Translations under genes and position numbers: made by a program
In this document: in pieces, positions 38,236 through 53,682 of the stretch
How positions within the stretch are numbered: the first letter of the stretch is position 1
Layout: each line of letters begins with the position of its first letter
Assembly (NCBI GenBank): GCA_964461835.1
Contig: CAYWVO010000012.1
Location: 2,478 to 66,477 of the forward strand
Direction of reading: 5' to 3'
DNA: 64,000 bases
From: an uncultured Ignavibacteria bacterium
Lineage (GTDB): Bacteria > Zixibacteria > MSB-5A5 > WJJR01 > JAJRUJ01
Notes under the pieces: generated by a model
Seen by the model: the letters and a program-made list of their open reading frames with translations, nothing else
Database searches by the model: none
What the model was told of the DNA's origin: nothing

Positions 38236-40674
38236 TTGGGAGACGGCGTCCGGGTAGTTTCTGATATCTGCGCCACGAAAGCAACCGTGCGGCGGGACAC
38301 CGATACCGTAATAAATGTCTCGATGAAAGAACCGACCACTTATCAGAGAACTCCGGCATATTTACCTGGGAGAGTGGCCGCAGCTCTCCTGGCAATTTTT
38401 CTGCTCTCGAATGCAAACACCTTCGCTAAATGGCTGGATTTCGAATTTACGAAATCGGAAGCTGGCGAGTTTTTGCTCGTCGATGATTTCCAGCGGGATG
38501 GCAACTATTATAAGATCACGGGAGATACTTCCGGAAAGCATTTTGTTTATTACCGCAATGTGCGAATCGGCGAGGGGTACCTTTGGCAGAAAAACTTATC
38601 GAGGCGGCACTATCGGATCTTCATGGTTGACAGAGGTCAATTCTGGCCGATGCAAATTCTGGTTGTGACAAGAGAGGACACCTGCCTTCATGCTTACCTC
38701 CTGCCGTGTTCAGAGGAAGAGGGGGAAGAATTTTCCCTCGCGCCAGTGTGCGGCCCGGATGTCTCCGCTAACGGCGACCACAAATGGGACTGTTATGTAG
38801 GAGCGGCCGCAAGTGTGGAACTCAATGACGATACGATCCCGGACTTCGTGGTTACGATCGGGTGCGGGTACGATAAGACTGAGCGCGGTCTCGTGGCGTT
38901 CGATGGACAAGATGGGGCAATTCTCTGGCATCAATTGACAGCGGCCACGCCACAAGATGATATCATCGTTGAGGATATTGATTTTGACGGCGAACGGGAA
39001 ATTATCTTCGAATCCTGGGGGCCGGATAATGGCCACGTGATTGACAGTACCAGCGATCACTACGCCTATATCTACATCCTCAATCGGCGTGGCGAGTTTG
39101 AACGGATCATCAATACCGGCGTCCGCCACACTGACTGCACCGTCGTTTACGATCGCCTACGAAAAAAATGGGCAATTTACTTTGCGATGGCTGACACGGA
39201 CACGAGTGAAGTGGCGGACCGTCTCGCGCGGTACGATCCCCTTTCCGGAAAGATCGATAAGCACGTTGGTAATCCGGAGTGGGATATTCGTCGCATTTAT
39301 TCAGTGATCCCCCGGGAGTCAGCATCTGCGCAACTCTTCGTGTCCACCTCGGGATTTTCCGCCGCGTCCTTTGATTTAGACCTTAACGAACTTCACGCCA
39401 AAGAATTCAATAAGAAAAGTTCAATCCGGCTCGTGAGAGATATCGACCGAGACGGGGTGGTGGAAGCCGTGTTCAATACTCGCGATTCCGTCTGGGTAAC
39501 CGATGCGTCCCTGCAGGTCGTAGGAAGCATCCGTAGTCGGCACTACTTTATCAATAATATTCAATACTATGAGGACACGGATCACGAGCCGCACGTGTGG
39601 GTGTCGGAGGACGACCGAGACGGCCGATCCATCCATTTGTCCTACCGTGTCACCCGGTACAAAAGTCCACCACCGCCACCCCACGAGGGTTTCTCGCTGG
39701 TTACCCTGTTGTTGATTGGTTCAACAGGGTTGGTCATCGGCGCCGGCATTGTGTTTGTCATTGTCCGTTTCGCCCGACCGGTTGCTGTTTCGACCAAAAC
39801 CAATGCGCACCATGCTGCCGCGGCAAATGAACTATTGGATTCACTGGCCGTTTTCGCGCATGGCCAGATGGTCCGCTCAGAATTGAATACCTTCGCCCGG
39901 CTGGGCAAGAATTTCAAATACGAGGGAGCAACCTCCTCCACTGCCAAAGAGCACTTGCGGAATTCCGCCCGAGAATACCTGGTGACCGTGGATCCACACC
40001 TGCGCCGCCTGATCTCGACCGAATCGCTCGACCAGCTTTCGAAGGAACGTCGCAAAACGGTTAACGAGATTACCGACCACTTGCGGTCGCACGCCCGCGC
40101 GATTGTCGCCAATCCGACGAATTCAGAGGAATGGGCGTCGATTGGGGAAGCCGTGGCGGCGGACATCACAAAACTGAAACAATGGATCCGGGACACCCGC
40201 AAGTCGCTGGAGGAGTTCTTCCGTGCCGACCCGATTGATGCACTTAAAGCGGCCGAAACTGTCACCCGGCGTTCACTCGCTGCGGAGAAATTACAAATTG
40301 CGATCGATGAGACCGTCGCCGGACTGAATCTCCCAGTATTCTTTGATCCAACCAAGTTGACCGCCGTTTTTGAGGAAATGATCGCTAATGCCATTACCGT
40401 ACTCGACGGTCGTGCCGACGCCGAAATCACCGTAACCGTCAGCCAGCTCGCCGATACGGTCATAGTACTCGTCGTCGATAACGGTCCCGGTATCCCTCTT
40501 CAGGATCAACCACGCATTTTCGATCGCGGTTACTCTCGGAAAGAGGCTGGAGGATTCGGTTTGTATTTCGTCAAAACGACCCTGGAGCGATACGGCGGTG
40601 CAATCATGCTGGTGCAGAGCGACCCAAGCGGTACCTCATTCAAACTCACATTCAGGATGATCCACAGTGGTTAA
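38236..40674 (+). CDS. sensor histidine kinase with large extracytoplasmic (FG-GAP/beta-propeller-like) domain
   Basis: N-terminal TM, ~430-aa ectodomain (IDFDGEREIIFESWGPDNG, DIDRDGVVEAVFNT), second TM FSLVTLLLIGSTGLVIGAGIVFVIV, cytoplasmic helical region. HATPase_c: VVDNGPGIPLQDQPRIFDRGYSR...GGFGLYFVKTTLERYGGAIM. Confidence 0.7.
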   Translation: MGDGVRVVSDICATKATVRRDTDTVINVSMKEPTTYQRTPAYLPGRVAAALLAIFLLSNANTFAKWLDFEFTKSEAGEFLLVDDFQRDGNYYKITGDTSGKHFVYYRNVRIGEGYLWQKNLSRRHYRIFMVDRGQFWPMQILVVTREDTCLHAYLLPCSEEEGEEFSLAPVCGPDVSANGDHKWDCYVGAAASVELNDDTIPDFVVTIGCGYDKTERGLVAFDGQDGAILWHQLTAATPQDDIIVEDIDFDGEREIIFESWGPDNGHVIDSTSDHYAYIYILNRRGEFERIINTGVRHTDCTVVYDRLRKKWAIYFAMADTDTSEVADRLARYDPLSGKIDKHVGNPEWDIRRIYSVIPRESASAQLFVSTSGFSAASFDLDLNELHAKEFNKKSSIRLVRDIDRDGVVEAVFNTRDSVWVTDASLQVVGSIRSRHYFINNIQYYEDTDHEPHVWVSEDDRDGRSIHLSYRVTRYKSPPPPPHEGFSLVTLLLIGSTGLVIGAGIVFVIVRFARPVAVSTKTNAHHAAAANELLDSLAVFAHGQMVRSELNTFARLGKNFKYEGATSSTAKEHLRNSAREYLVTVDPHLRRLISTESLDQLSKERRKTVNEITDHLRSHARAIVANPTNSEEWASIGEAVAADITKLKQWIRDTRKSLEEFFRADPIDALKAAETVTRRSLAAEKLQIAIDETVAGLNLPVFFDPTKLTAVFEEMIANAITVLDGRADAEITVTVSQLADTVIVLVVDNGPGIPLQDQPRIFDRGYSRKEAGGFGLYFVKTTLERYGGAIMLVQSDPSGTSFKLTFRMIHSG

Positions 40675-42019
40675 AGCACGGCCCCGCATCCTCATCGTCG
40701 ATGACGATCGTACGTTCGTCGACAACCTGAGCCAGATGATCGGCGAGGACTATGAATGCGAGAAACTGTATTCGGCGCTTCATTGCCGGGAACTCAATGA
40801 CTACGGGCAGTATGATGTCATCATGCTGGATATCCGCTTTCCGGAACCGATCTCGGGTCTCGACCTCTTGCGAGAAATCAAGATCAGCGATCCCTATGTA
40901 CCGGTGATTATGATCAGCGATACAGAATCCGCCCCGGTCGTGGTGGAGGCAATGAAGCGGGGAGCCAGCGATTACATCGGCAAGACCCCCGATCGTCAGC
41001 AACTCAAACTGACCATCACCAAAGCGATTCAGGAAGTACGCCGGAACGAAACATTGGGTCTGTTACGACAGGAGATTGATTCCCGAGTCGGTCAATTGGT
41101 CGGCAACAGTGAGGCATTACAGCGAATCCGTCGGCAGATTGACAAAGTGTCTTGCAGTACCAGCCCGGTGCTTCTTCTGGGAGAGAGCGGTACCGGCAAG
41201 GAATTGGTGGCCCGGGCAATCCATCGGCGGAGTGCTCAACGGAACCATCCCTTCATCGCAGTAAATTGCGCCGCCATTCCCGAGGGTCTGCTGGAAAGTG
41301 AACTCTTCGGACACGAGAAAGGTGCATTTACCGATGCCCGCCGGCAGAAAAAAGGCCAGTTCGAGCTGGCAGGCGAAGGGACCATCTTCCTGGACGAAAT
41401 CGCCGACATCGCACTGCCGCATCAGGCCAAACTGCTGCGCGTTTTACAAGAGCGAGAATTCCGCCGGGTAGGCGGCGAAATGGACATTCAGCTGTCCTGC
41501 CGGGTGATCGCCGCAACTAATAAAACTCTCATGCGGGAAATCGAGGCAGGCCGGTTTCGCGATGATTTGTATTGGCGGTTGGCAGTAGTAAAAATCCAGG
41601 TACCGCCTCTTCGCGAAAGGAAGGCCGATATCCCTTTATTGACGAAACACTTTATCCAACGGAAAGCCTCTGAACAAAAAAAGCGAGTCATGGGTGTGGA
41701 TCGGGAAACGCTGGAAGCCATGGTTGCCTATTCCTGGCCGGGGAATATTCGCGAATTGGAAAACTGTATCGAATGTGCCATTGTCCACGCCGAAGGAGAA
41801 ATCCTCACCAGGGAACTATTCCCGCAACTGTCCCCCGGCGAGCGGGCCGCCATTCCCAGTTACGGTGTCGAGAAGGAACGCGCGTTACATCGATTTCAAC
41901 GTGATTATATCAAAACCATGCTGAGTTTGACCAACAACAACATCACTCAGGCAGCAACAAAGATGGGGGTGACTCGGCAAGGCTTATTGAAGATGATGAA
42001 AGAAATCGGCTTGCGGTGA
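40667..42019 (+). CDS. sigma-54-dependent response regulator (NtrC family: REC plus AAA+ sigma54-interaction plus HTH)
   Basis: ILIVDDD...MLDIRFP (receiver), LLGESGTGKELVARAIH...ESELFGHEKGAFTDA, and a GAFTGA-equivalent loop. Overlaps the kinase gene by 8 nt. Confidence 0.85.
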   Translation: MVKARPRILIVDDDRTFVDNLSQMIGEDYECEKLYSALHCRELNDYGQYDVIMLDIRFPEPISGLDLLREIKISDPYVPVIMISDTESAPVVVEAMKRGASDYIGKTPDRQQLKLTITKAIQEVRRNETLGLLRQEIDSRVGQLVGNSEALQRIRRQIDKVSCSTSPVLLLGESGTGKELVARAIHRRSAQRNHPFIAVNCAAIPEGLLESELFGHEKGAFTDARRQKKGQFELAGEGTIFLDEIADIALPHQAKLLRVLQEREFRRVGGEMDIQLSCRVIAATNKTLMREIEAGRFRDDLYWRLAVVKIQVPPLRERKADIPLLTKHFIQRKASEQKKRVMGVDRETLEAMVAYSWPGNIRELENCIECAIVHAEGEILTRELFPQLSPGERAAIPSYGVEKERALHRFQRDYIKTMLSLTNNNITQAATKMGVTRQGLLKMMKEIGLR

Positions 42020-42251
42020 TGGAAACTCCGGTTGACACCCCTGTTTTCGCCATTACAACAACTTACCGCAATTCACCTTCCTCACCGTTAACTGCAGTTT
42101 CCGACCTGCCAAAAACCCCGGGGGTTCGTCTCGGCGAACCTTCCCCATAACCTGCTGTCATTGCACTGCTTAGCCAGCTCTCCCCGCAGTTGGCATGGGG
42201 GTTGATATAACGTTCGCCAAATGAACAGATCTTGAACAAAAAGGAAGGAGC

Positions 42252-42539
42252 GTGATCATGGGTGATTTTCTGGCCTTTCGCCGGATGATAACCCCCTTCA
42301 TCATCCAGGCAATCTTCTGGATCGGGGTAGCGTTTAGTTTCATCGGCGGCATTGTCATCATTGTTCTTGCAGCAACCCAGAATTACATCGCGGTTGGTTT
42401 GCTGGTTGGTTTCGGCATGATGATCATTGGGCCGTTTGTGGCCCGAATTCAATGCGAGCTGCTCATTTTGTCGTTTCGCATTCACGATAATCTCGTGGAC
42501 ATCAACAGGAAAACCAAAGCGCAGGAAACTAATGCCTGA
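42252..42539 (+). CDS. small two-helix integral membrane protein (DUF4282-like)
   Basis: 95 aa: FIIQAIFWIGVAFSFIGGIVIIVLAA...AVGLLVGFGMMIIGPFVARIQ. First ORF after the two-component pair. Confidence 0.45.
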   Translation: MIMGDFLAFRRMITPFIIQAIFWIGVAFSFIGGIVIIVLAATQNYIAVGLLVGFGMMIIGPFVARIQCELLILSFRIHDNLVDINRKTKAQETNA

Positions 42540-42625
42540 TCATGGGATGTCCCAGCGGCATCGGGACGGACACAGGGGTTACTGCCAAATAAGAGGATGC
42601 ACCCAACCTTCATCGGAGGAAACAA

Positions 42626-44281
42626 ATGATTCGCATGATTGCTCTTTCAATCGGACTGACCATCGCTGTGATTTTCAACCTTACTGGCCGGGCGGGCGCC
42701 GAAGAATACGTACGCAAGGCGGTGACGGCGGTTGAGACGGTCGTCCTGACGTCTCCCAAAGTGAAACTCAATGCTCAACAAGACAGCCTGCTGCGTGAGG
42801 CCTTCAGTCGCTTCATCATGAAGGAATGCTATGATGAAGTACCGTTGCGCGCCAAAGACCAGGCCCAGATCCGGGCCCGTCTGGCCAACGAGGTCGTGAC
42901 GGTCGATGGTGGCGACGGGCAGCTCACTTCCATCATTAATGAATTGGTCGCACCTGCACTGGTCAAGGTTATGGAGGCGACGCTTAAGTGGCGCACGGAA
43001 AAAGACAATCCTCACTTCGACGAAGATACCTTCATTAGACTGAAAGCCAAGGACCTGGGCATCACGGTCGAGGATTTCGAACGGATGATGAAGTGCGGAT
43101 ACCTGTATGTACCCTTCCTGTCTGAGTTGAAAAGCTCAGGGTCCGGGAAGGACGCCAATTTTACTCTTAAAGGCGGTACGGTCTGGTACTATCTGGATAT
43201 CGATGCTAAACCAGACCCGGTCCTGGTATACCGAGCGAAGGTGAGTTCCACAGGCATGACTGGACTTTGGTCAAACTTCCTCAAAGATAAAAAACTCACG
43301 CCGGAGTCGGAAGCATTCTGCAGCGCAGCAAAACGACTGGCGGAGAATGTTTACGTAAAAAGCACCACGAAAATTCCTGATATCCGTCGAGCTTGCACTA
43401 TCACCGAAATCGTGGAAAACTCCCCCGGCTTCCGTTTAGGATTTCGAGAAGGTCTCATTCTTGACGATCGGTATGCCGTCATTGACCGTTATGAAGACCA
43501 GTCAGGGAACGAACACGAGAAACGTATCGGCTTTTTCATGGTGAAGCGCGTGACGGATAATCGAGATGATCGCACTAAACTTAGTTGGGGTAGACCAGTC
43601 ATCGGCAGCGGCAATATGGCAGAGGGCATGATGGTGCGGGAGATTCCTAAAACTGCGATCGATCTTTCGATCCGCACTACCTGGCGTCCGCTCGCGTTTG
43701 ACTCGCTGCGGGTTTCCAATCTCGGAACGACCTACTTCAGTCTGGAGGATACCACTTCCACGGGAGTCTTCACCATCGACGTCGATCTGCAAATGAATAT
43801 CGGGCGCAAGCTGGGGATATCACAGTTTTTCCTTGACCTCGGTGCCGGCTACGGGTACGCACCGGTAAAACTGAACCTGTTTGATAACACCGAAATCAAC
43901 CACGGCACATCCCTCGCCGTGCACGGAGGTCTGATGAAACGGATATACCTGGGACGCTCGGCCTTTGTGATCGGCGGGGATTTTGTTTTCGAGCGTCTCT
44001 CATTTAAGGAGAAAGTGAACAACACGGAATATATGCTCTATCGTGATTTCATCAGCGGCATCTTCCGTGCCGGATTCGATTATGCGCTCAGTTCGTCGCT
44101 TAATATCGGATTACGCGGCGGTTACACGATCGCTGAGAAAAGCGCTGACTGGAAGCTGAAAATAAACGACGAAAAGCCTGCATGGTACGAAGGCCAGGGC
44201 GTGGCGATTGACCATGACGGTCCCTACGCTTCGTTGGTCTTCAGTTATGCGCTACCGTCACTGTTCTGGTCACCCTTTTAG
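42626..44281 (+). CDS. secreted protein with periplasmic N-domain and C-terminal outer-membrane beta-barrel-like domain (terminal ...WSPF)
   Basis: Signal peptide MIRMIALSIGLTIAVIFNLTGRAGA. The C-terminal third shows an alternating hydrophobic pattern (GYAPVKLNLF, LAVHGGLMKRIYLG, FVIGGDFVFERLSF, ASLVFSYAL) and a terminal aromatic. Confidence 0.5.
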   Translation: MIRMIALSIGLTIAVIFNLTGRAGAEEYVRKAVTAVETVVLTSPKVKLNAQQDSLLREAFSRFIMKECYDEVPLRAKDQAQIRARLANEVVTVDGGDGQLTSIINELVAPALVKVMEATLKWRTEKDNPHFDEDTFIRLKAKDLGITVEDFERMMKCGYLYVPFLSELKSSGSGKDANFTLKGGTVWYYLDIDAKPDPVLVYRAKVSSTGMTGLWSNFLKDKKLTPESEAFCSAAKRLAENVYVKSTTKIPDIRRACTITEIVENSPGFRLGFREGLILDDRYAVIDRYEDQSGNEHEKRIGFFMVKRVTDNRDDRTKLSWGRPVIGSGNMAEGMMVREIPKTAIDLSIRTTWRPLAFDSLRVSNLGTTYFSLEDTTSTGVFTIDVDLQMNIGRKLGISQFFLDLGAGYGYAPVKLNLFDNTEINHGTSLAVHGGLMKRIYLGRSAFVIGGDFVFERLSFKEKVNNTEYMLYRDFISGIFRAGFDYALSSSLNIGLRGGYTIAEKSADWKLKINDEKPAWYEGQGVAIDHDGPYASLVFSYALPSLFWSPF

Positions 44282-44329
44282 TAGGCTGACCGTGACGATG
44301 CAATCGCTGAAGAATGCGCACAAGGAGAA

Positions 44330-45616
44330 GTGACCATGAGATTTTCAACACGATCCATCCTGCTGATACCGGTCATGCTGATTGGCCTGCCGCACGGCAC
44401 GGCGCTGGCGGATGACTGTACACCGCCGGTTTCCAAAGAAGTGAGTTACTTTGCGCCGAGCCCGGAAGTTGCGTCGGCAGTGGTGCTCAAAGTGTGGGGT
44501 ATCGGGGATGGCGGAAATGACCGGGAACGAAACAACAACGGGATTATTGACGCAAAAAAAGCTGCCTGCTGGCATGTCCTCTTTGCCGAACCCGACAATT
44601 TGCTGCGCACGCGTGACATGCGCCTGGCCTTCGAACCGTTGGCCGAATCATTCTGGTGCCTGGACACAATATCCAACTTCATCACTTCCGTGTCCCCCAT
44701 CCGCAAGTCGGTGCAGCATGGCCCGAAAGGAAAACAACGTAAGGTGCTGGTTGAGGCCGGTGTTAACATTGAGACGATCTCCACGTGGCTGGCCGATCAC
44801 AATATTGCCGTCACCCTGCAAACGCGCTATACCATCATGGTTCTGCCGTGGGTCCCGCGCGGTGAAAATCCGCTGGCCGAGCTGGAAGCAGACCCCAAGT
44901 TGCGCTCCGCGGCGAATGTTATCCAGCAGCATTTTCCGCCACACCGATACGAGGTAAAGAATCCCTCTGGAGAATTACGCCTCCAAGAAGTTATTAAAGC
45001 CACGGACCTGGTGGAGGACAACCCGGACGATTATCACTACCGGATTGCGCTTTCTCAGGGTGCGGATATTTACCTCACTTATGAGATTACAATCAACCCC
45101 CTGGAAGTCCACGGTCAGAAATTGCATCAAGCAGAAATGCGACTTGAGGCGTACGAAACCGCCACTGCCAAAATGTTGGGCACGCAAACCGGGTACAGTG
45201 ACCAACGTGCGAAAAGCGCCTCCGAACAAATGCTGATTGAAGAGGCCTTCGCCAAAGCTACGCACGCGCTCAAGGCCGGGATGCAGGAGTACTGGTTCGA
45301 CTGTCTCACACGAGGTACTCCCTTCCGCGTGGTTGTCAAACTCCCCGAAGACCTCGACCGGAGGGGATTTCGTGAGATCCAACGATGCTATGCCGGCGGA
45401 ATCGAATCGCTGTTTACAGATCACCGAGAAACGGCAACCACCCGTAGTGTGATGGATTTTATGATCTGGGCAAATCCGGAACAGTTTGCCAACCTGCGAA
45501 ACCTCGAAGACAAGATTTTGGATTGGATGGACGGCGAGTGCGCGGCGTGGACACTCGACATCCCCTACAGTATGGTCGGCAAGTTCTATCAGGGTGCAAT
45601 CGTTGCCAATGATTGA
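44330..45616 (+). CDS. secreted hypothetical protein
   Basis: Signal peptide MRFSTRSILLIPVMLIGLPHGTALA. 428 aa with no recognisable catalytic motif. Confidence 0.45.
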   Translation: MTMRFSTRSILLIPVMLIGLPHGTALADDCTPPVSKEVSYFAPSPEVASAVVLKVWGIGDGGNDRERNNNGIIDAKKAACWHVLFAEPDNLLRTRDMRLAFEPLAESFWCLDTISNFITSVSPIRKSVQHGPKGKQRKVLVEAGVNIETISTWLADHNIAVTLQTRYTIMVLPWVPRGENPLAELEADPKLRSAANVIQQHFPPHRYEVKNPSGELRLQEVIKATDLVEDNPDDYHYRIALSQGADIYLTYEITINPLEVHGQKLHQAEMRLEAYETATAKMLGTQTGYSDQRAKSASEQMLIEEAFAKATHALKAGMQEYWFDCLTRGTPFRVVVKLPEDLDRRGFREIQRCYAGGIESLFTDHRETATTRSVMDFMIWANPEQFANLRNLEDKILDWMDGECAAWTLDIPYSMVGKFYQGAIVAND

Positions 45617-45674
45617 TTTGACGACAGTGGGGGAATTGGCACTCAGCCTGGCAAAGGGCACATGAGATACGCAA

Positions 45675-46640
45675 ATGGTCTCAACATTTCCGGACAGCAA
45701 ACGGCAAGCAGTATCGAAGCGGTTTTTCTATCGCGTCGCTTGGTTCTCGCTGGTCGCGATGATTTCCGGCATTCCCTCATTGGCTCAGGCGGATCTCCCC
45801 TCGGACCAAGACCGGGCAGCTGCGTACACGCAGTCGTACGTCATCCTGCCGGCACAGGAGCGCGATCCACTCGCTGCACTCGACACCAACCAGGACCTCC
45901 GCGAGTGTGCGCAGGCACTCAATGAATTATTCTTGGAACGGGGGTTATACGTAATCGATCCGCGTGCCGGCTTCATGCTGGATGAACGTCTGCGGGCGAC
46001 GGGTATAATCGCCGAAAGAAGGTTGGCCGAAACAGAGGAGATATTCGCCTCGCGGTTGTTGGCCGATGTTGAAGTTCGCTTTTCCCTGAAGGAGGTACGT
46101 CGGGGAATACCCGCAAGTACCGGCCTAACCATCCAGGTAGATATTCAATGTCTCTCTCAGGACGGCCGCTTGATTACCGCGGATGCACTCGCCGGCGCCG
46201 GAGGCAGTAAGAGCAACAAATCGGTGACCATTCGTGCAGCCGCATATGCCGCCGGCCGTCGTTTGCTGAGCCGTTTGGCAGTGGCTGAAACAAGCACCGG
46301 ATCGCGACCGCTCACCTTGCGCGTAATTGTCCAGTTCTCAACTAAGGCAACAGATCGTCACCATGCCTGTCCGCGGCGAGCGCTGCTGGATGCGATGCAT
46401 GAAACCGCAGACCTGGTAAAAGAGAATATCATCACCGCCAAGACCATTGACTGTTGGATTTTCCTGAAAGAGAAGGAAAAAGACGGCGAGCATTGGTTGG
46501 CGAAAGTGATCGAGACCTTTGCCGAACGCTGTGATCAACCTGTGAAAGAAGTCCTTATGAAAGATAATCTCATCCTATTGAAAGTGATTGAGCCACAACC
46601 GAAGGGGATATCCCCGCCAACTAAGGAGGAAGAGAAATGA
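45675..46640 (+). CDS. secreted hypothetical protein (LPP20/CsgG-like periplasmic fold suspected, unproven)
   Basis: N-terminal hydrophobic segment ...FFYRVAWFSLVAMISGIPSLAQA. The Ala/Gly-rich segment ADALAGAGGSKSNKSVTIRAAAYAAGRRLLSRLA is reminiscent of LPP20-type lipoproteins. Confidence 0.4.
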   Translation: MVSTFPDSKRQAVSKRFFYRVAWFSLVAMISGIPSLAQADLPSDQDRAAAYTQSYVILPAQERDPLAALDTNQDLRECAQALNELFLERGLYVIDPRAGFMLDERLRATGIIAERRLAETEEIFASRLLADVEVRFSLKEVRRGIPASTGLTIQVDIQCLSQDGRLITADALAGAGGSKSNKSVTIRAAAYAAGRRLLSRLAVAETSTGSRPLTLRVIVQFSTKATDRHHACPRRALLDAMHETADLVKENIITAKTIDCWIFLKEKEKDGEHWLAKVIETFAERCDQPVKEVLMKDNLILLKVIEPQPKGISPPTKEEEK

Positions 46641-47962
46641 AACATATCTTCATCGCTGTTTTGTTACTTGCGCTGACGTGGTCGCCGGCGAGCGCCGATC
46701 GCTGGAATTCCATGCGGGTCAGCATCGAAGTCTCCGGTGTTAACGACGAACCCGCACCTGCGGTAGCAAAACGTCTGGCACGGGCGATGGATAAAATCGA
46801 TGTCATCGTTGAGGAAGGGTCAAGCCTGGTCTTACAGGGTGAGTTGGCAATCGAGCGTGAGCAAGAAATTCCCGGCGGATTCTCAGGATCCCAGTTTCTG
46901 GTTAATAACCGGCTCGATCTGGCCATCGTTGATCGCGAAACCGGCAACCGACTGGCTACCGCAGTTTTCTATGCAAAGGGCATGGACAACGACCGTGCGC
47001 GCGCTATCCGAGCCTCGTATCGGAAATTCACGTTTCCCAAGGACGAATTAGCCACATTCTACGACCGCGCTCAGCAACGGTTGATCAAGGTCATGGAAGA
47101 AGCCAACGCCTCCCTCCTGGAGGAGGGTGAGGCACTGTACGGCAGAAAGAAACGCGATCAAGCACTGAACGTGCTGGCCTCGATTGATAAATCTTCCGCC
47201 AGTTATCCCGCGGCCCGGTCACTTATCGACAAAATCAAAGAAGAACAGTGGGTGATTTGGCAGGACTCTCTCGAACATGAGCGAAAGATGATGGAAGAAA
47301 CGACCAGGCAGGATTCCATTCGCGTTGATTCTCTTCGCCAGGAAAAGGAGAAGGCGTTAGCGGAGGCGCAAAAGGTGTCTGATTCCCTCGCAATCGTCAA
47401 GGCGGTGGGAGACAGCATCAAAGCCTCATTAGAAATCGAACGTTCGGAAACTGAACACCAGCGACTCCAGGTGGCATTGAAACAGGCGGAAGCGAAAGCA
47501 GAAAGCCTGCGCATTATTCGCAACCTTGTCGAGCAGCAATCCAATCAGATAATCCGGGAGCAGAAGAAGGCCGAGCAGGAGCGCAAGAAAAACCGCGACA
47601 CCATCTCTTCTCTGACCGACCTCATTACCGGAGGCGTGGCCAAATTGTCCGACTCCATGGCCCGGTTTCTAGGTCGGAAGAATATCGAACTTCCAGAAGA
47701 ATTGGTTGGTCAATGGCAGTCCAGTGATTGCAGCATCGATATCCGTAGCAACGGCGATTTCACGATGAATACGCCATCTGAACCCAAATATATTCACGGG
47801 TACGTGGCTGTGGTGAAGGATGGTATCATGGTTTTGTGTGCGGAGAATCAGGATATCGACGAAAAAAACAAAAACTGGCAGGTTCGTTATAAAATTGAGC
47901 GGTCGGGTTCGCTTGTGATTGCGGCCGCCAGCGGATTCGTGCGACATTTCGTGCGGGGGTAA
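46637..47962 (+). CDS. secreted coiled-coil protein
   Basis: Signal peptide MKHIFIAVLLLALTWSPASA. Central ~170 aa are heptad-rich (EEQWVIWQDSLEHERKMMEETTRQDS...LRIIRNLVEQQSNQIIREQKKAEQERKK). 4-nt overlap with the upstream gene. Confidence 0.45.
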   Translation: MKHIFIAVLLLALTWSPASADRWNSMRVSIEVSGVNDEPAPAVAKRLARAMDKIDVIVEEGSSLVLQGELAIEREQEIPGGFSGSQFLVNNRLDLAIVDRETGNRLATAVFYAKGMDNDRARAIRASYRKFTFPKDELATFYDRAQQRLIKVMEEANASLLEEGEALYGRKKRDQALNVLASIDKSSASYPAARSLIDKIKEEQWVIWQDSLEHERKMMEETTRQDSIRVDSLRQEKEKALAEAQKVSDSLAIVKAVGDSIKASLEIERSETEHQRLQVALKQAEAKAESLRIIRNLVEQQSNQIIREQKKAEQERKKNRDTISSLTDLITGGVAKLSDSMARFLGRKNIELPEELVGQWQSSDCSIDIRSNGDFTMNTPSEPKYIHGYVAVVKDGIMVLCAENQDIDEKNKNWQVRYKIERSGSLVIAAASGFVRHFVRG

Positions 47963-47997: not shown

Positions 47998-48645
47998 ATG
48001 ACGAAAGGTCCTAAACATTCAGACGATACCCCGTCCCCCTCTGCAACAGAGCAACCAGATGCAGTCAGGTCCGAGTCTGCTGAACCGCAAGACACCACCT
48101 CTGATGGGAACGGAGTAACAGCCGGAGATTTGCTCGCAGCGATTCATGCCTTGGATCAGCGGCTCTCCGAACACCTGGCGGCGACCGCGCGGTGCAATCA
48201 GACTGCGTTTGATCGTCTCTACGAGGAAATGGAACAGTACAAAAACAATTTCCTGCTGGAGATTCAACGGGGACTGCTAATCGATATTATGTTGTTGTAT
48301 GACGGAGTGCACAAGTGCCTCATGCATTACCATCAGACAGATTCAATCGATCGCAATGCGCTTGTAGGAAATCTCGAAGGATTGCTGGTCGAAACCGAAG
48401 AAATCCTGGCTCGCCGGGATATCCTGCCTATGACCGAACCGCACGCAAAACTGGATCGCACAACCCAAAAGGCGGTCAAGTCTATTCACACGACCGATCC
48501 CGGCGAAGACCTGACAATTGTGGATAAAATGCGAACGGGTTTTCTCATCGGTAAACGCGTGTTCCGGCGGGAAGAGGTAGTCATCAAGAAATATATCCCG
48601 GATGAAGGTTCGGGTTCTCTCAAAATCAGTAACGAGGATGAGTGA
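47998..48645 (+). CDS. GrpE-like nucleotide-exchange factor (divergent)
   Basis: A low-complexity acidic N-terminus is followed by a helical region and a C-terminal beta-domain (LTIVDKMRTGFLIGKRVFRREEVVIKKY) resembling GrpE's 'GY..G.R.LRPA.V.V' tail. Confidence 0.5.
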   Translation: MTKGPKHSDDTPSPSATEQPDAVRSESAEPQDTTSDGNGVTAGDLLAAIHALDQRLSEHLAATARCNQTAFDRLYEEMEQYKNNFLLEIQRGLLIDIMLLYDGVHKCLMHYHQTDSIDRNALVGNLEGLLVETEEILARRDILPMTEPHAKLDRTTQKAVKSIHTTDPGEDLTIVDKMRTGFLIGKRVFRREEVVIKKYIPDEGSGSLKISNEDE

Positions 48646-48700: not shown

Positions 48701-50260
48701 ATGAACAATACCGCTGGTAACAAAATTGTTGGGATTGACCTGGGAACGACGTTCTCGGCGATTTCCCATATCAATGAACACGGAAAACCGGAAACCATTC
48801 TCAACAACGATGGCACTCCCACGACACCATCCGCAGTTTTATTCGAGAGTGCCGACAATATTGTTGTCGGCCAATTGGCGCGCGACAGTGCGGTGAGTTC
48901 TCCCCACAATGTGGTCACACTCGTCAAACGGGAAATGGGCCGCGATACGAAATTCGACCCTGCCGACCAGGAATTTACCCCGGAAGAAATCTCAGCGATG
49001 ATTCTGCGCAAACTCAAACAAGATGCAGAGAGCAGACTGGGCATGCCAATCACCCAGGCGGTGATCACGGTGCCGGCGTATTTCGGAACCGCAGAACGTA
49101 AGGCGACCGAGGACGCCGGTGAGATGGCGGGGCTTACGGTCGCGCATATCCTTAACGAACCGACTGCCGCCGCACTGGCATTTGGTTTGGCCAACCCTGA
49201 CCGTGAGCAGACGTTGCTCGTGTATGACCTCGGCGGCGGCACCTTCGACATCACCCTGTTGAAAATTCGTCCGCCGGCAAACGGCTCGTTGCCGGACGTG
49301 GAGATGATCTCCACCGGTGGTAATCATGATTTGGGTGGCGTCAACTGGGACGAGCGAATCATCGACTACGTTGCCGAGCAGTTCGCCGAACAACACGGAT
49401 CCGACCCGCGGGACAATCTGGCCAGCAAACAGGATTTGTACATTCGCTGCGAAAAGGCGAAGATTGCCCTGGCTAAGGTGGCTAAGACGCGCATTGCCTG
49501 CCAACACGATGGTCAAACCGTGGTGGTCGAATTGGATCGCGGCAAACTTGATGAATTGACCGCCGATTTACTCCAACTCACTGTCGACGAGATGGATCAG
49601 CTGTTGGCCGATAAGGGCGTTGCTCCAGAGAGTGTCGACCAGGTAATCTGCGCCGGCGGATCAACACGGCTGTTAACCGTACGCGAAATGCTTCAACGGC
49701 GATTCCCCGGCAAGGTCAACACCGCCATTGACCCGGATCAGTGTGTGGCGCAGGGAGCTGCGTGGATGGGACATCTCATTGCGGCGACAAAGGATGGAAG
49801 TGGCGAAACGATAACGGTCACCGACGTTGCTCCGCATGCCTTGGGGGTTGCGGCGCTTAATGAAGCGAAAGAACTGCGTATCTATCCCCTTATCCCCAAA
49901 GACACTCAGTTGCCTTGTGGAAGTAAAGACACTTTCTACACCTCAGATGGCAATCAAACCGGGGTGGAAATTAAGGTCTATGAAAACGAGGTGCGTTCCA
50001 AACAGGAGGTCACCGACCTCTCAGCCGGACAGATGATCGGCGAGGCAATTTACTTATCCGGTCTCCCCGGTGGCCGCCCTCCCGGTCAGCCTATCGAAGT
50101 GACGTTCAGTTTTGATGCCAGTTTCCGGCTGGGAGTAACCGCAGTCGATGTGAACACCGGCACGACAATTAATGCCGAATTCGTGCTGGGCTCCAGACTT
50201 GACACTGTGCAAAAGGAAAATACGGCCAAAATGTTGGCAGATACAGAAATTCAAAGTTGA
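48701..50260 (+). CDS. Hsp70-family ATPase with nucleotide-binding domain and beta-sandwich substrate domain but no alpha-helical lid (HscC-like, non-canonical)
   Basis: IVGIDLGTTFSAISHI (phosphate-1), AVITVPAYFGTAERKATEDAG, LLVYDLGGGTFDITLL, VICAGGSTRLLTVREML. 519 aa versus ~640 for DnaK. The canonical GIDLGTTNSCVAV/DnaK lid is absent. Confidence 0.8.
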   Translation: MNNTAGNKIVGIDLGTTFSAISHINEHGKPETILNNDGTPTTPSAVLFESADNIVVGQLARDSAVSSPHNVVTLVKREMGRDTKFDPADQEFTPEEISAMILRKLKQDAESRLGMPITQAVITVPAYFGTAERKATEDAGEMAGLTVAHILNEPTAAALAFGLANPDREQTLLVYDLGGGTFDITLLKIRPPANGSLPDVEMISTGGNHDLGGVNWDERIIDYVAEQFAEQHGSDPRDNLASKQDLYIRCEKAKIALAKVAKTRIACQHDGQTVVVELDRGKLDELTADLLQLTVDEMDQLLADKGVAPESVDQVICAGGSTRLLTVREMLQRRFPGKVNTAIDPDQCVAQGAAWMGHLIAATKDGSGETITVTDVAPHALGVAALNEAKELRIYPLIPKDTQLPCGSKDTFYTSDGNQTGVEIKVYENEVRSKQEVTDLSAGQMIGEAIYLSGLPGGRPPGQPIEVTFSFDASFRLGVTAVDVNTGTTINAEFVLGSRLDTVQKENTAKMLADTEIQS

Positions 50261-50314: not shown

Positions 50315-51532
50315 ATGACGAAGGGCTCGGTTCCAAGAGATAGATTATATAAAAAGTTGGGCATCCCGGAGCGACGCAACGACCCGACGCTACCGGATAA
50401 AAATTACTTCTACTTGCTCGGGATAAATGAGGATCAGGATGATCACGAGGTAGCCGCGCAGGTCGGGCAGGCCTATGCCAAGCGCATGCAGGACTTTAAA
50501 ACATACGGCCACATCGATCGCTCTGAAGCAGGACGACTCCAGAAGGAATGCACAAAGGCGAAGCGAGCGCTGAGCGATCCACAACTGCTGGACGCCCACC
50601 GTCAGATGGTGCGCCATCTCCGTCTGGACGATTTCGCGACGGAAGCAGAGCGGCTGCACCAGGGCGCGGTCACAGAAGAACACGCCGCCACGATTCTCAA
50701 ACAAAGCGCCGCTACCTACGGATTTCCTGCATCAGAAGTGGATCAGGTCGTGAAGGACCTTCTGGAAAGATTCGGGTCTTGGGCGGTGAGCCAGGAGGTG
50801 GTGTCCCATCCCCTGCCCCGCTGGCTATGGATCTCGCTGCCGGTAGTTTTCTTCGGGGCCTTGGTTTCGCACGGTCTACTGGCCTTCCTTTCTCTGACTG
50901 CACTGGCAATCGGTCTGTTGCAATCAATCAGGTTGCGCAGTGGCGGATATGCTGCCTGGGGATTCACGTCCTTCTTTTTTGGGCTTTTGTGCTTCATGGT
51001 GTTTGACTTCTCTGTGCCTCCGGCGTCAGTCAACGGCGGGCATAACGACGGGTTTTTCAATCCACAATCTGCTCCTGTCGGCGGAGCAAAAGGGACCGAG
51101 GCGGGCCCGCTATCTCTGGCTGCGGGGGACTATTCCGGATGGCAGATGGAGGGGTCCGCATTCGGCACCGCGCCGGTATCCGAGACAATCGAAGGTGACA
51201 TGATGCACTTTGCCGATTCCTTCAAACCGACCCAGAGCGACAACGCGACGGGGCGATTAACCTCCGGTTCGTTTGTCATCGAATATCGGCGGCTCCGCTT
51301 TCTGATTGCGGGCGGGAAATATCCCGGACGATGCTGTGTGAATCTTGTGGCCAACGGTGATGTCCAGCGAACCGCGACCGGAAGCGCCGACAGAGAACTG
51401 CGGGAAGTCGTCTGGGATCTCACTGATCTGATCGGGCAGACGGCACATATTGAAATCCTGGATATTGTAGGTTCTACAAATCCCTTCGCCCCCGGTTGGA
51501 TTCGGGCGGGAGAGTTTACGTTTCTCCAGTAG
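50315..51532 (+). CDS. membrane-anchored J-domain-like protein (HPD replaced by H-I-D) with two TM helices and a C-terminal jelly-roll/lectin-like domain
   Basis: NYFYLLGINEDQDDHEVAAQVGQAYAKRMQDFKTYGHIDRSEAGRLQKECTKAKRALSD aligns to the J-domain helices II-III. TM: WLWISLPVVFFGALVSHGLLAFLSL and FTSFFFGLLCFMVFDF. The C-terminus SGWQMEGSAFG...FVIEYRRLRFLIAGG...GWIRAGEFTF is beta-rich. Confidence 0.5.
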   Translation: MTKGSVPRDRLYKKLGIPERRNDPTLPDKNYFYLLGINEDQDDHEVAAQVGQAYAKRMQDFKTYGHIDRSEAGRLQKECTKAKRALSDPQLLDAHRQMVRHLRLDDFATEAERLHQGAVTEEHAATILKQSAATYGFPASEVDQVVKDLLERFGSWAVSQEVVSHPLPRWLWISLPVVFFGALVSHGLLAFLSLTALAIGLLQSIRLRSGGYAAWGFTSFFFGLLCFMVFDFSVPPASVNGGHNDGFFNPQSAPVGGAKGTEAGPLSLAAGDYSGWQMEGSAFGTAPVSETIEGDMMHFADSFKPTQSDNATGRLTSGSFVIEYRRLRFLIAGGKYPGRCCVNLVANGDVQRTATGSADRELREVVWDLTDLIGQTAHIEILDIVGSTNPFAPGWIRAGEFTFLQ

Positions 51533-51711: not shown

Positions 51712-51985
51712 CTACTTCAGCAGCAGCATCTTGCGGGAGTCCGTAAACTCTCCTGCTTGTAAACGATAGAAGTACACGCCGCTGGGATTTTCTGCTGCCT
51801 CCCAGACCGTGCTGTAATTGCCGGCCGGGAGTTGTCGGTCTAATACCGTCTCCACCAGTTGTCCCCGGACATTGAAGACCTCCAGCGTGACTCGCGATGC
51901 CTTCGCCAATCTGAAGTGAATCCGCGTTGAAGGGTTAAACGGATTGGGGGTATTCTGGCGCAGGGAGAACTCAATGGGGAGTGTA
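51712..51985 (-). other. T9SS type-A C-terminal sorting domain (Por_Secre_tail-like)
   Basis: The 'NPFNPST', 'L.V.N..G..V' and 'GVYFY.L' motifs read directly in the last ~90 aa of the ORF. Confidence 0.65.
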
Positions 51986-53682
51986 CCTTCCTCACTGATC
52001 ACACCAGTGATCTGATCGATGGTCACGTGGGCGGTCGCCTGTAAACTCCCGGAGGAATCCTCTGCCGACACCGTGAACTCGCCCAGCGTGGGGCCGGCCT
52101 CGTATATACCGTCTTCGCTAATAGTACCACCCGTGGCGCTCCACGTTGGGGTGAACGCCATTACCCCACCCACTTGATCGATTCCTTCAGCAAAAAACGC
52201 AACAATAGCTCCGGGATCGATGGTGACCGAATCAGGCACAACATGAATAGCGGCAAGAGTCGGTTGATACGCCATCACGAGTGTAACCGCGGTGTCCGCC
52301 CGGTTCGGATCGGACACCGATTCGCACGCGGCCGTTAGGCTCGAACCGGTCAGATCGCCGGCACCGGGTGGAATCGAAAGGACGACTTCGACCAGACCGG
52401 GATCGCTGCCGGTCAGTGCTACGGTAGCAGATGCGGGCGAACTCAGCCACCCTTGTGAATCAGAGAGGTCAATATCGACAGTGGCGGTGGATCCTGACCA
52501 GTCTCGCACGGCAACCATAATCGTATCAACCGTGCCAAGGGTGAAGAAGAGTGTGTCGGCGCCAAAGCTTGCCGTCAGAGCCGGCACCTCATCAAGCCAT
52601 TCACTCACCTGCACACCGCTGGAGATCGGATCGCCGCTGCCCGTACCTTCACCGGAAGGTTCGTCAATCGCACCCCACCAGTTGCCCTCAGCAGCAACAC
52701 TACCCGCACCCCCATTGGCGATACCGAAATCAGTGTTGCCCGAAACGATACTGCCCTCGACAACAAGCGGTCCATCGAGGTTCCACATGATGCCGGGCCC
52801 CGCATTATCGGTAATTGCCGCTCCACGGATCTCGGATTCGTCACCAATGGCGAAATCGAGCGTTTCAGACTGGGGAAAGGCGGCACTAATTCCCTGCGCG
52901 CTATCTTCCCGCGGTTTCCCCAGGAGACCACCCAGGCCATTCGTGCACAGCGTTACGGCGCCAAGCTCCAAAATGCCGCCTTCTTCATTTTCATAAAAAT
53001 AGTTACGTTCCGCCGGATCCGCGCCCCCGATCACGTTTGCCTTGCTGTAGTTCATATTCAAGCCCCACTTATTACCGTGGAACGTACACCCCTCCACGAC
53101 GCTCGTGTTACTATTGTTATGCAAAAGCGCCAGCGCGGAATTGGTGAAATTCCGGAACTCAATGTTGCGGATTTCATGGCCACCGCTCGAGAAGACTAAT
53201 CTGGAGACATTGGGCGTGCCGAGACCGTCCAGCACGACATTGGTCGACCCATCTATCTGGCCGTCGATAATCACGGGTGCGGAGATATTGGGAAAAAAGT
53301 TGGTCGTTTTGGAGATCACCGACGCCGACGCCGCGAAACGTATTTCCGTCAGCCCCCCTGAGTAGTTGGCATTCTCAATTGCCGCACGCAAGGTCGGGTG
53401 GAAGAAAATACCGTCATCCAGATTGGTATCGGGGAGATCACTGGGGTCAGTAATAACATAGGTATCCACGGGCGTACGGCCGTCCAAGTGCTCGGGCCGG
53501 CTCAGCATCGCCAGCGCTCGTTTGCTCACACTAGTGGTCGTTTTTGTTTTTTGCGGGGGTTCGGCCTCAGCCGAGGATGACGCACCTCCCAGTGAAGCAC
53601 AGATCATCAGTACTGCTATCGTCATAGGCTTAACGTGCGACCACACAACTGACCTCCAACCGTTTACCGTCGCCTGAATCAA
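51712..53682 (-). CDS. T9SS-sorted secreted protein: right-handed parallel beta-helix repeats plus Big_2 Ig-like domain plus C-terminal Por sorting domain
   Basis: Signal peptide present. Repeats: ...NNSNTSVVEGCTFHGNKWGLNM.... Big_2: VHVVPDSVTIDPGAIVAFFAEGIDQVGG. C-terminus: LRQNTPNPFNPSTRIHFRLAKASRVTLEVFNVRGQLV...GVYFYRLQAGEFTDSRKMLLLK. Confidence 0.7.
   Translation of the reverse strand: MIQATVNGWRSVVWSHVKPMTIAVLMICASLGGASSSAEAEPPQKTKTTTSVSKRALAMLSRPEHLDGRTPVDTYVITDPSDLPDTNLDDGIFFHPTLRAAIENANYSGGLTEIRFAASASVISKTTNFFPNISAPVIIDGQIDGSTNVVLDGLGTPNVSRLVFSSGGHEIRNIEFRNFTNSALALLHNNSNTSVVEGCTFHGNKWGLNMNYSKANVIGGADPAERNYFYENEEGGILELGAVTLCTNGLGGLLGKPREDSAQGISAAFPQSETLDFAIGDESEIRGAAITDNAGPGIMWNLDGPLVVEGSIVSGNTDFGIANGGAGSVAAEGNWWGAIDEPSGEGTGSGDPISSGVQVSEWLDEVPALTASFGADTLFFTLGTVDTIMVAVRDWSGSTATVDIDLSDSQGWLSSPASATVALTGSDPGLVEVVLSIPPGAGDLTGSSLTAACESVSDPNRADTAVTLVMAYQPTLAAIHVVPDSVTIDPGAIVAFFAEGIDQVGGVMAFTPTWSATGGTISEDGIYEAGPTLGEFTVSAEDSSGSLQATAHVTIDQITGVISEEGTLPIEFSLRQNTPNPFNPSTRIHFRLAKASRVTLEVFNVRGQLVETVLDRQLPAGNYSTVWEAAENPSGVYFYRLQAGEFTDSRKMLLLK

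Follow-up and report, generated by a model that had tools for sequence, protein, structure and literature searches.

A probable lineage-specific version of an envelope gene cluster found across bacteria of the Fibrobacteres-Chlorobi-Bacteroidetes group, abutting a separate GrpE-Hsp70 module

The window analyzed here is a 64-kb stretch of metagenomic DNA (contig CAYWVO010000012.1), in which a first-pass annotation had flagged five open reading frames (ORFs), here called A to E, as an operon-like array of envelope proteins feeding into an Hsp70 chaperone triad. The five ORFs span 42258-47962 (all coordinates are those of the whole window), are all encoded on the plus strand with signal peptides or transmembrane helices, and are directly followed by genes for a GrpE-like protein (F), an Hsp70 (G) and a partner protein (H) (Table 1). 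Genes were also called independently on another contig from this organism (L001), with the same result except at two start codons (A at 42258 instead of 42252, C at 44336 instead of 44330). With these two starts adjusted, the head-to-tail arrangement upstream of the chaperone genes stands as first described, and so does the tight packing of A to E. Spacing amounts to 86 nt between A and B, 54 nt between B and C and 58 nt between C and D, followed by a 4-nt overlap of D and E; the gaps then measure 35 nt (E-F), 55 nt (F-G) and 54 nt (G-H). The plus-strand gene run is unbroken from a histidine kinase gene (starting at 38236) through H (ending at 51532), and no terminator-like site was found in the intergenic gaps from A to H, and such sites were not in excess of shuffle expectation.

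Table 1. Genes of the locus and its surroundings (window coordinates)
Feature	Coordinates	Strand	Evidence
A, 93-aa DUF4282 membrane mini-protein	42258-42539	+	Pfam PF14110, two hydrophobic segments
B, 551-aa outer-membrane protein, core member	42626-44281	+	homologs in 63/80 loci, family consensus matches OMP_b-brl
C, 426-aa secreted long-form DUF6175 protein, core member	44336-45616	+	Pfam PF19672, AlphaFold2 and Foldseek
D, 321-aa secreted short paralog of C, lineage-specific	45675-46640	+	hhalign, C-family profile
E, 441-aa secreted protein, third-gene C-terminal part plus long helix	46637-47962	+	phmmer, hhalign, family profile
Histidine kinase, large periplasmic domain	38236-40674	+	Pfam
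Sigma-54 response regulator	40667-42019	+	Pfam
F, GrpE-like	47998-48645	+	Pfam
G, 519-aa Hsp70	48701-50260	+	Pfam
H, 405-aa membrane partner protein	50315-51532	+	N-terminal ~170 aa common to genes after Hsp70 elsewhere
656-aa right-handed beta-helix protein, type IX C-terminal sorting domain, convergent to H	51712-53682	-	

Signal peptides were read by inspection and hydropathy. The N-terminus of B is hydrophobic and signal-peptide-like, ending in AGA/EE (the slash marks the cleavage point), and similar N-termini were seen in C (ALA/DD), D (AQA/DL) and E (ASA/DR). Searches of A to E against Pfam, NCBIfam, PADLOC and PDB sequences returned only domains of unknown function (DUFs) or weak barrel matches. 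Neither an enzymatic signature nor a Curli (CsgG/E/F), Pel (PelB/C) or Lpt (LptD/E) match was found for A to E in Pfam or NCBIfam, and the initial view that the five proteins carry no enzymatic motif and are claimed by no described system was borne out.

To place these proteins, we searched for relatives of B and C. A word-indexed protein search with B recovered B itself and a single protein of 42% identity; the same search with C recovered C only. The 7.4-kb contig of the B relative (L002) carries a divergent histidine kinase and response regulator pair, B, C and the start of D at the contig end. It is the very closest relative, and as it ends inside D, any linkage between E and the Hsp70 genes lies beyond its sequence. 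Two metagenome scans, one with an alignment of B and one with an alignment of close C sequences, found no relatives. An exhaustive HMMER search with C of 1.84 billion cluster representatives (E≤1e-3) retrieved 169 representatives, about 60 of them full-length (~420 aa, 25-42% identity) and sharing the conserved motif AYETTTARLLGTETGYS. A strict scan for this motif in one genome per GTDB species yielded 187 species-level genomes with the locus, and 80 of the 187 loci were compared together with flanks of up to 10 kb. Around four fifths of the loci carry taxon names, nearly all from the Fibrobacteres-Chlorobi-Bacteroidetes (FCB) group, namely Marinimicrobia, Cloacimonadota, Fibrobacterota, Kryptonia, Ignavibacteria, Latescibacteria, Zixibacteria, Calditrichota, Balneolales, Bacteroidota, LCP-89 and others; one locus is labelled Lentisphaeria, and three labels of metagenome-assembled genomes look wrong.

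Among the 80 loci, full-length and collinear B homologs (21-28% identity) are present in 63; where the sequence extends far enough upstream (62 loci), the gene immediately preceding C is B in 55. The window shows the same arrangement, with B followed by C on the same strand after a 54-nt gap. Downstream of C, an LPP20-family gene was found in 51 of 64 testable loci. All 38 third-gene proteins tested contain the LPP20 domain (PF02169), 17 of the 38 also contain an immunoglobulin (Ig)-like segment of the bMG3 type, and the longest end in a CsgG/LpoB/FlgO-like domain, for which the FlgO Pfam matches are weak and the CsgG and LpoB matches in some proteins reach E-values down to 1.8e-19. The third-gene family profile also matched a solved LPP20 lipofamily protein (E=1.9e-13). 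Shorter LPP20 lipoproteins (~190 and ~250 aa) often come next in the loci, and a CsgG/LpoB-like protein or a DUF4384 protein is an occasional addition. One Candidatus Kryptonium locus (L077:14617-19136) adds a CsgG/LpoB-like protein, an LPP20-DUF4384 protein and a caspase (Peptidase_C14) fused to an outer-membrane beta-barrel.

Taken together, these comparisons define an FCB-wide gene cluster, the core of which consists of a B-type barrel protein and a long DUF6175 protein, usually followed by one to five LPP20-family proteins; these are FlgP-like, FlgP being a protein which we take to be a member of the LPP20 family. Dozens of distantly related genomes show the B-C-(E-like) order again, so that the arrangement of B, C and E is far beyond chance. 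The cluster cannot be taken for an ordinary Lpt, Bam or curli component. Among relatives whose context is usable, the nearest (L095-L097) encodes B, C and E at 39%, 42% and 32% identity, respectively, with a metallophosphatase-domain protein next, and contains no D, DUF4282 or Hsp70 genes. A joining of L003 with L095, which come from related samples, into one genome was rejected as unsupported (GC 0.42 and 0.37, respectively).

The C-terminal part of B had been proposed to form an outer-membrane beta-barrel-like domain with a terminal Phe, and the family data uphold this proposal. The protein ends in LPSLFWSPF. On its own, B scored below the cutoff of the OMP_b-brl model (PF13505; 15.1 bits, cutoff 28.7), and the consensus of 52 B homologs scored above it (29.8 bits); individually, 11 of the 52 family members match this model. 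In the family alignment, residues 341 to 545 include eight amphipathic beta segments, and the family profile gave weak matches to NspA and to a designed 12-strand barrel among PDB sequences. An AlphaFold2 model of B, built from a two-sequence alignment, reached a predicted local distance difference test score (pLDDT) of 29.6 only. By sequence, the N-terminal two thirds of B appear to be a family for which Pfam holds no model. Given its small size of about eight predicted strands, the barrel is suggestive of an anchor rather than of a secretion channel.

C, the second core member, matches DUF6175 (PF19672) at E=1.2e-12 (48 bits, cutoff 23), and the C-family consensus reaches 63 bits. Its AlphaFold2 model, computed from a 45-sequence alignment (pLDDT 89.6; predicted template modelling score 0.81), shows three alpha/beta domains. 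A Foldseek comparison of this model with the PDB placed FlgT at the top (3w1e, E=2e-8), followed by the Vibrio LPHT ring (8z5n, E=1.7e-7), and listed CT253, CsgG, PelC, HP0492, GNA1162, LpoB and LptE as further neighbours. When single domains of C were superposed, target-normalised template modelling (TM) scores of 0.44-0.60 were obtained for PelC, GNA1162, LpoB and LptE, and lower ones for CsgG.

D gave no direct Pfam or NCBIfam match. It aligned with the C family over C residues 177-426 in hhalign (probability 97.6%, E=3e-12), and the C-family hidden Markov model (HMM) matched it at 1e-13, which identifies D as a short DUF6175 paralog covering the middle and C-terminal domains of C. Orthologs of D were encountered only in L002 and L098. 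The initial description of C and D as two secreted proteins of ~320-430 aa agrees with their lengths and signal-peptide-like N-termini.

Similarly, E was without a match in Pfam or NCBIfam and could be assigned through the conserved cluster. Its residues ~26-205 correspond to ~335-515 of the LPP20-family third gene, downstream of the Ig-like segment (hhalign probability 99%, E=3.6e-18), phmmer gave a like alignment, and the third-gene family HMM matches E at 3.7e-34. An assignment of the N-terminal domain of E as CsgG/FlgO-like was rejected, as in long third-gene proteins that domain follows the region aligned with E. Pro is absent and Gly occurs once in residues 192-331 of E, which are rich in E, K, Q and R, a composition that fits a long helix or coiled coil. 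The earlier designation as a coiled-coil protein is thus compatible with this segment, the prediction being one from composition, and it leaves aside the third-gene-like region and the ~100-aa C-terminal domain that follows the long helix. A full-length ortholog is present in L095 (32% identity). An LPP20 domain was not matched by its HMM anywhere in the six-frame translation of the window.

The small protein A carries two hydrophobic helices and matches DUF4282 (PF14110) at E=1.4e-11 (45.3 bits, cutoff 27) over profile positions 1-85 of 86, which confirms the DUF4282-like mini-protein originally recognized. No homolog of A was found in the 80 loci compared, in L002 or in L095. Accordingly, A is a neighbour and not a conserved member of the B-C module.

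Upstream of A, the histidine kinase and the sigma-54 response regulator are possible regulators of the module. Such a pair also adjoins B, C and D in L002, where it is divergently oriented, and homologs of the kinase or of the regulator occur near the module in about 10 of the 80 loci. The window kinase has a periplasmic domain of ~480 aa, and its counterpart in L002 (L002:644-3016) gave faint FG-GAP/beta-propeller Pfam matches. A sigma-54-like element, TGGCATGGGGGTTGA, lies at 42191-42205, between the sigma-54 response regulator gene and A, ~50 nt 5' of the latter. The -12 element reads TTGA instead of TTGC and is non-consensus, matches of this quality occur at chance level in the window, and sigma-54 sites were not enriched in the regions upstream of B at 56 loci. 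A conserved sigma-54 promoter was rejected on these grounds.

The genes downstream of E encode the chaperone triad. F matches GrpE (PF01025) with 30.5 bits (cutoff 25.8) and G matches Hsp70 at E=3.7e-114 in Pfam. Neither Pfam nor a comparison of a family profile of H-like N-termini with PDB sequences revealed a J domain in H, and the family reads YGHID or YAHID at the position aligned with the HPD of J domains. With two or three hydrophobic segments (residues ~166-235), the membrane topology of H, which decides whether H could touch periplasmic proteins, is ambiguous; two helices would place its C-terminus in the cytoplasm, three in the periplasm. The C-terminal domain of H (~170 aa) is beta-rich, may be lectin-like and has no relative in Pfam or among PDB sequences.

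The first-pass annotation had regarded the array as feeding into, or driven by, this triad, and had set synteny in other genomes as a test. Synteny turned out to be absent from both sides. Homologs of F and G were found in none of the 80 C-anchored loci, and the sole match to H was borderline (E=0.0098); as indicated above, the L095-L097 relative also has no Hsp70 gene next to its B, C and E. Conversely, the nearest relatives of G (52-64% identity) form a clade of short Hsp70s in GrpE-Hsp70-X triads, and no DUF6175 or B-like genes were found near the seven nearest Hsp70 relatives compared (P0010, P0012, P0013, P0014, P0016, P0017 and P0033; 42-64% identity). In five of these seven, a gene for an Hsp70-von Willebrand factor A (vWA) fusion precedes the triad; of the other two, one has a divergent protein kinase gene upstream and in one the contig starts too near GrpE to tell. 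The N-terminal ~170 aa of H recur in the gene after Hsp70 in L003, L005, L006 and L009 and align with L093.

These results indicate that B to E and GrpE-Hsp70-H are separate, independently distributed modules that abut in this genome, as the two sets occur apart in their relatives. A and F to H may nevertheless be co-transcribed with B to E in this organism. Regarding the triad itself, prokaryotic conflict systems are known to include accessory Hsp70-GrpE modules with variable partners (Kaur et al. 2020, PMC7159879), with which the reading of a portable Hsp70 module is in agreement.

Several observations were made on the genomic context of these chaperones and of the window. The order Hsp70-vWA fusion, GrpE, short Hsp70 and a protein sharing the N-terminus of H is found in L003, L004, L006-L010, L093 and L094, with a vWA protein and an ABC/FtsX transporter also upstream in L006, L007, L009 and L010; a description of this apparently recurrent vWA-linked accessory Hsp70 system was not found in the single literature search aimed at it. 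In a more distant Hsp70 branch, arrays of FGE-sulfatase-domain proteins lie downstream. At one such locus (L011:9280-21596), GrpE and a short Hsp70 are followed by at least six paralogs of 400-460 aa, most of them with an FGE-sulfatase domain and all with a shared conserved N-terminal region. In the window, the locus is flanked by housekeeping genes (pyruvate dehydrogenase E1/E2/E3, GlgE and TreS-type enzymes, a Na/Pi transporter), and the largest ORF encodes 2042 aa (5074-11202, plus strand). From the housekeeping flanks and the convergent protein with a type IX secretion system (T9SS) tail, the window belongs to the chromosome of an FCB-type bacterium sampled by metagenomics, in which one or more proteins bear a T9SS sorting tail.

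Overall, we consider it probable that B to E are a lineage-specific, reduced version of the FCB-wide gene cluster, most likely forming an outer-membrane-anchored periplasmic scaffold. In the corresponding model, the small barrel of B would anchor the assembly in the outer membrane, with the N-terminal region of B reaching into the periplasm. C and its paralog D would oligomerise beneath the outer membrane, as FlgT, PelC and CsgG-type modules do; CsgG forms a ring in the periplasm under the outer membrane, and the PelC entry of the PDB was deposited as a dodecamer. The third-gene protein would extend the scaffold, in this organism as E, in which a long helix would have been gained and the LPP20 head lost. 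Together, these proteins would yield a periplasmic scaffold or ring associated with the outer membrane, and neither a secretion pore nor an enzyme. Regarding the trans-envelope assembly suggested at the outset, the part that holds is a set of envelope proteins belonging together, an outer-membrane barrel with periplasmic partners in conserved order; the part that was not sustained is the Hsp70 engine, for which synteny is missing.

A number of points weigh against this model. The N-terminal ~315 residues of B have no relative in Pfam, among PDB sequences or among the other cluster proteins. The likeness of C to FlgT is at the domain level only, with global TM-scores of 0.19-0.27 and 10-13% identity, and C did not match the Pfam FlgT models (PF16548, PF16538) at E≤0.1. 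Because these global scores are low, the kinship suggested by the models would be one of modules and not of a rigid architecture. Across the 80 loci, the surroundings of C contain no conserved flagellar genes and, to our knowledge, many of the carrier lineages are non-flagellate. The oligomerisation of C and D is proposed by analogy, and we infer the function of B to E from sequences and structural models. Furthermore, the window version, having no LPP20 gene, may work differently from the canonical cluster, and the 35-nt gap and shared strand between E and F leave a lineage-specific coupling to Hsp70 open.

Such a coupling is the basis of another explanation, in which A to E and GrpE-Hsp70-H form one trans-envelope machine whose cytoplasmic or inner-membrane Hsp70 engine would drive secretion or fibre assembly through the B barrel. 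It would account for the shared strand, the gaps of 35-86 nt uninterrupted by terminator-like sites, the histidine kinase and sigma-54 response regulator pair upstream, and the hydrophobic segments of H together with its C-terminal domain (~170 aa), for which a periplasmic location is conceivable. We nonetheless regard it as very unlikely, given that the two sets did not co-occur in the 80 loci or in L095-L097, that the nearest Hsp70 triads elsewhere mostly follow an Hsp70-vWA fusion, that the B barrel has only about eight predicted strands, and that H is of ambiguous topology with no J domain detected. The barrel also bears on the possibility of polymer export, with the module serving as an outer-membrane gate for either an exopolysaccharide or an amyloid, like PelB-PelC or CsgG. 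The presence of PelC, CsgG and LptE among the structural neighbours of C, the real CsgG and LpoB domains of some third-gene proteins and an SLBB protein related to polysaccharide-export proteins at six loci all point in that direction. Polymer export is less likely because the barrel is too small for a channel and the 80 loci share no neighbouring genes for a glycosyltransferase, polymerase or amyloid subunit; with no Pfam match to CsgG, Pel or curli proteins in the window either, we hold this explanation to be highly improbable. A stress or defence island had also been raised, and the defence-island reading was rejected, as A to H gave no match to PADLOC models at E≤0.01.

A further explanation takes the B-C core as an accessory of type IX secretion or cell-surface attachment, acting beside a PorU/PorV-like sortase-shuttle pair. 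At six loci (L015, L018, L021, L024, L030 and L046; e.g. L030:389-11272), a tight same-strand array encodes, in this order, a PorU-related C25 peptidase with a T9SS tail, a PorV/PorQ-family protein, a 260-aa protein, the SLBB protein, a FlgT_N protein, B and C. Many loci, the window among them, encode proteins with T9SS C-terminal sorting domains beside B or C, and most titled loci belong to the FCB group, a broad group in which T9SS occurs. The PorU/PorV link is, however, confined to 6 of the 80 loci, with NCBIfam PorU2/PorV2 scores below the curated cutoffs, and T9SS cargo genes are numerous in these genomes, so that adjacency may be due to chance. NCBIfam gave no T9SS match for B or C, a PorU/PorV-related pair was not found among the window ORFs scanned, and a literature search for LPP20 in connection with T9SS returned nothing; we also know of no B or C homolog named among T9SS components. 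As an explanation of the module this appears unlikely, and the type IX secretion link is a real lead. The six array loci lack LPP20 genes, as if the array were an alternative partner set for B and C.

Returning to the scaffold model, a bolder extension of it, which we consider unlikely, would be an unseen ring or disk built from H-ring-type modules (FlgT-, FlgP- and FlgO-like) under the outer membrane of largely non-flagellate FCB bacteria, tied to it by the B barrel and working in some lineages with a second PorU/PorV-like sorting pair. In the lineage of the window, this structure would have been rewired, with loss of the LPP20 head and gain of the long helix and of D, and brought under a membrane-spanning Hsp70 partner, allowing its sensing or remodelling by a cytoplasmic chaperone.

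The cluster spans most FCB phyla, yet DUF6175 is its only Pfam handle and B is without a family model; searches of the literature likewise yielded nothing on DUF6175, on DUF4282 or on LPP20 with DUF4384, CsgG or FlgO. Parts resembling the H-ring, PelC and CsgG rings suggest an unrecognised envelope structure in the FCB superphylum, whose outer-membrane biology is already unusual (T9SS, gliding). A defined core (B, C and LPP20) with alternative partner sets constitutes a concrete target for cryo-electron tomography and genetics. The Hsp70 link was seen only in this window and provides no basis for proposing a conserved chaperone-driven secretion machine.

Among known systems, the triad can be compared with canonical DnaK-DnaJ-GrpE, with which it shares the Hsp70 and GrpE domains, a J domain with HPD not being found in H. 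Like the Hsp70-GrpE modules of conflict systems, G is an additional Hsp70 outside the housekeeping set, accompanied by a GrpE of its own and a dedicated partner, and its nearest relatives are linked to vWA-domain proteins. Unlike these modules, the window triad has neither a GAP1-N2 GTPase nor a vWA gene, and it combines an H protein in which no J domain was detected with the lack of a PADLOC match.

For the envelope proteins, single domains of C superpose on the small alpha/beta folds of the class formed by PelC, CsgG, LpoB, GNA1162 and LptE, whereas C itself is a three-domain protein and has no lipobox; moreover, Pel, curli and Lpt partner genes were not found and these families have no Pfam matches in the window. 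The FCB third-gene family shares its LPP20 domain with Helicobacter LPP20 (PDB 4kzs, 5ok8), from which E differs in that it retains solely what follows the LPP20 and Ig-like domains. The closest likeness suggested by the models is to the Vibrio flagellar H-ring, in which FlgT (three domains) and the lipoproteins FlgP and FlgO form concentric outer-membrane-associated rings, FlgP adopting a compact fold of two beta-sheets and two helices (bioRxiv 10.64898/2025.12.02.691832). The H-ring differs in having no B-type barrel protein, and the window version in having no LPP20 gene and no flagellar genes near C. The two sets are alike in that FlgT is the best structural match of C, that canonical FCB clusters add LPP20-family proteins (some with weak FlgO matches) and six loci a FlgT_N protein, and that both consist of outer-membrane-associated periplasmic proteins devoid of enzymatic motifs.

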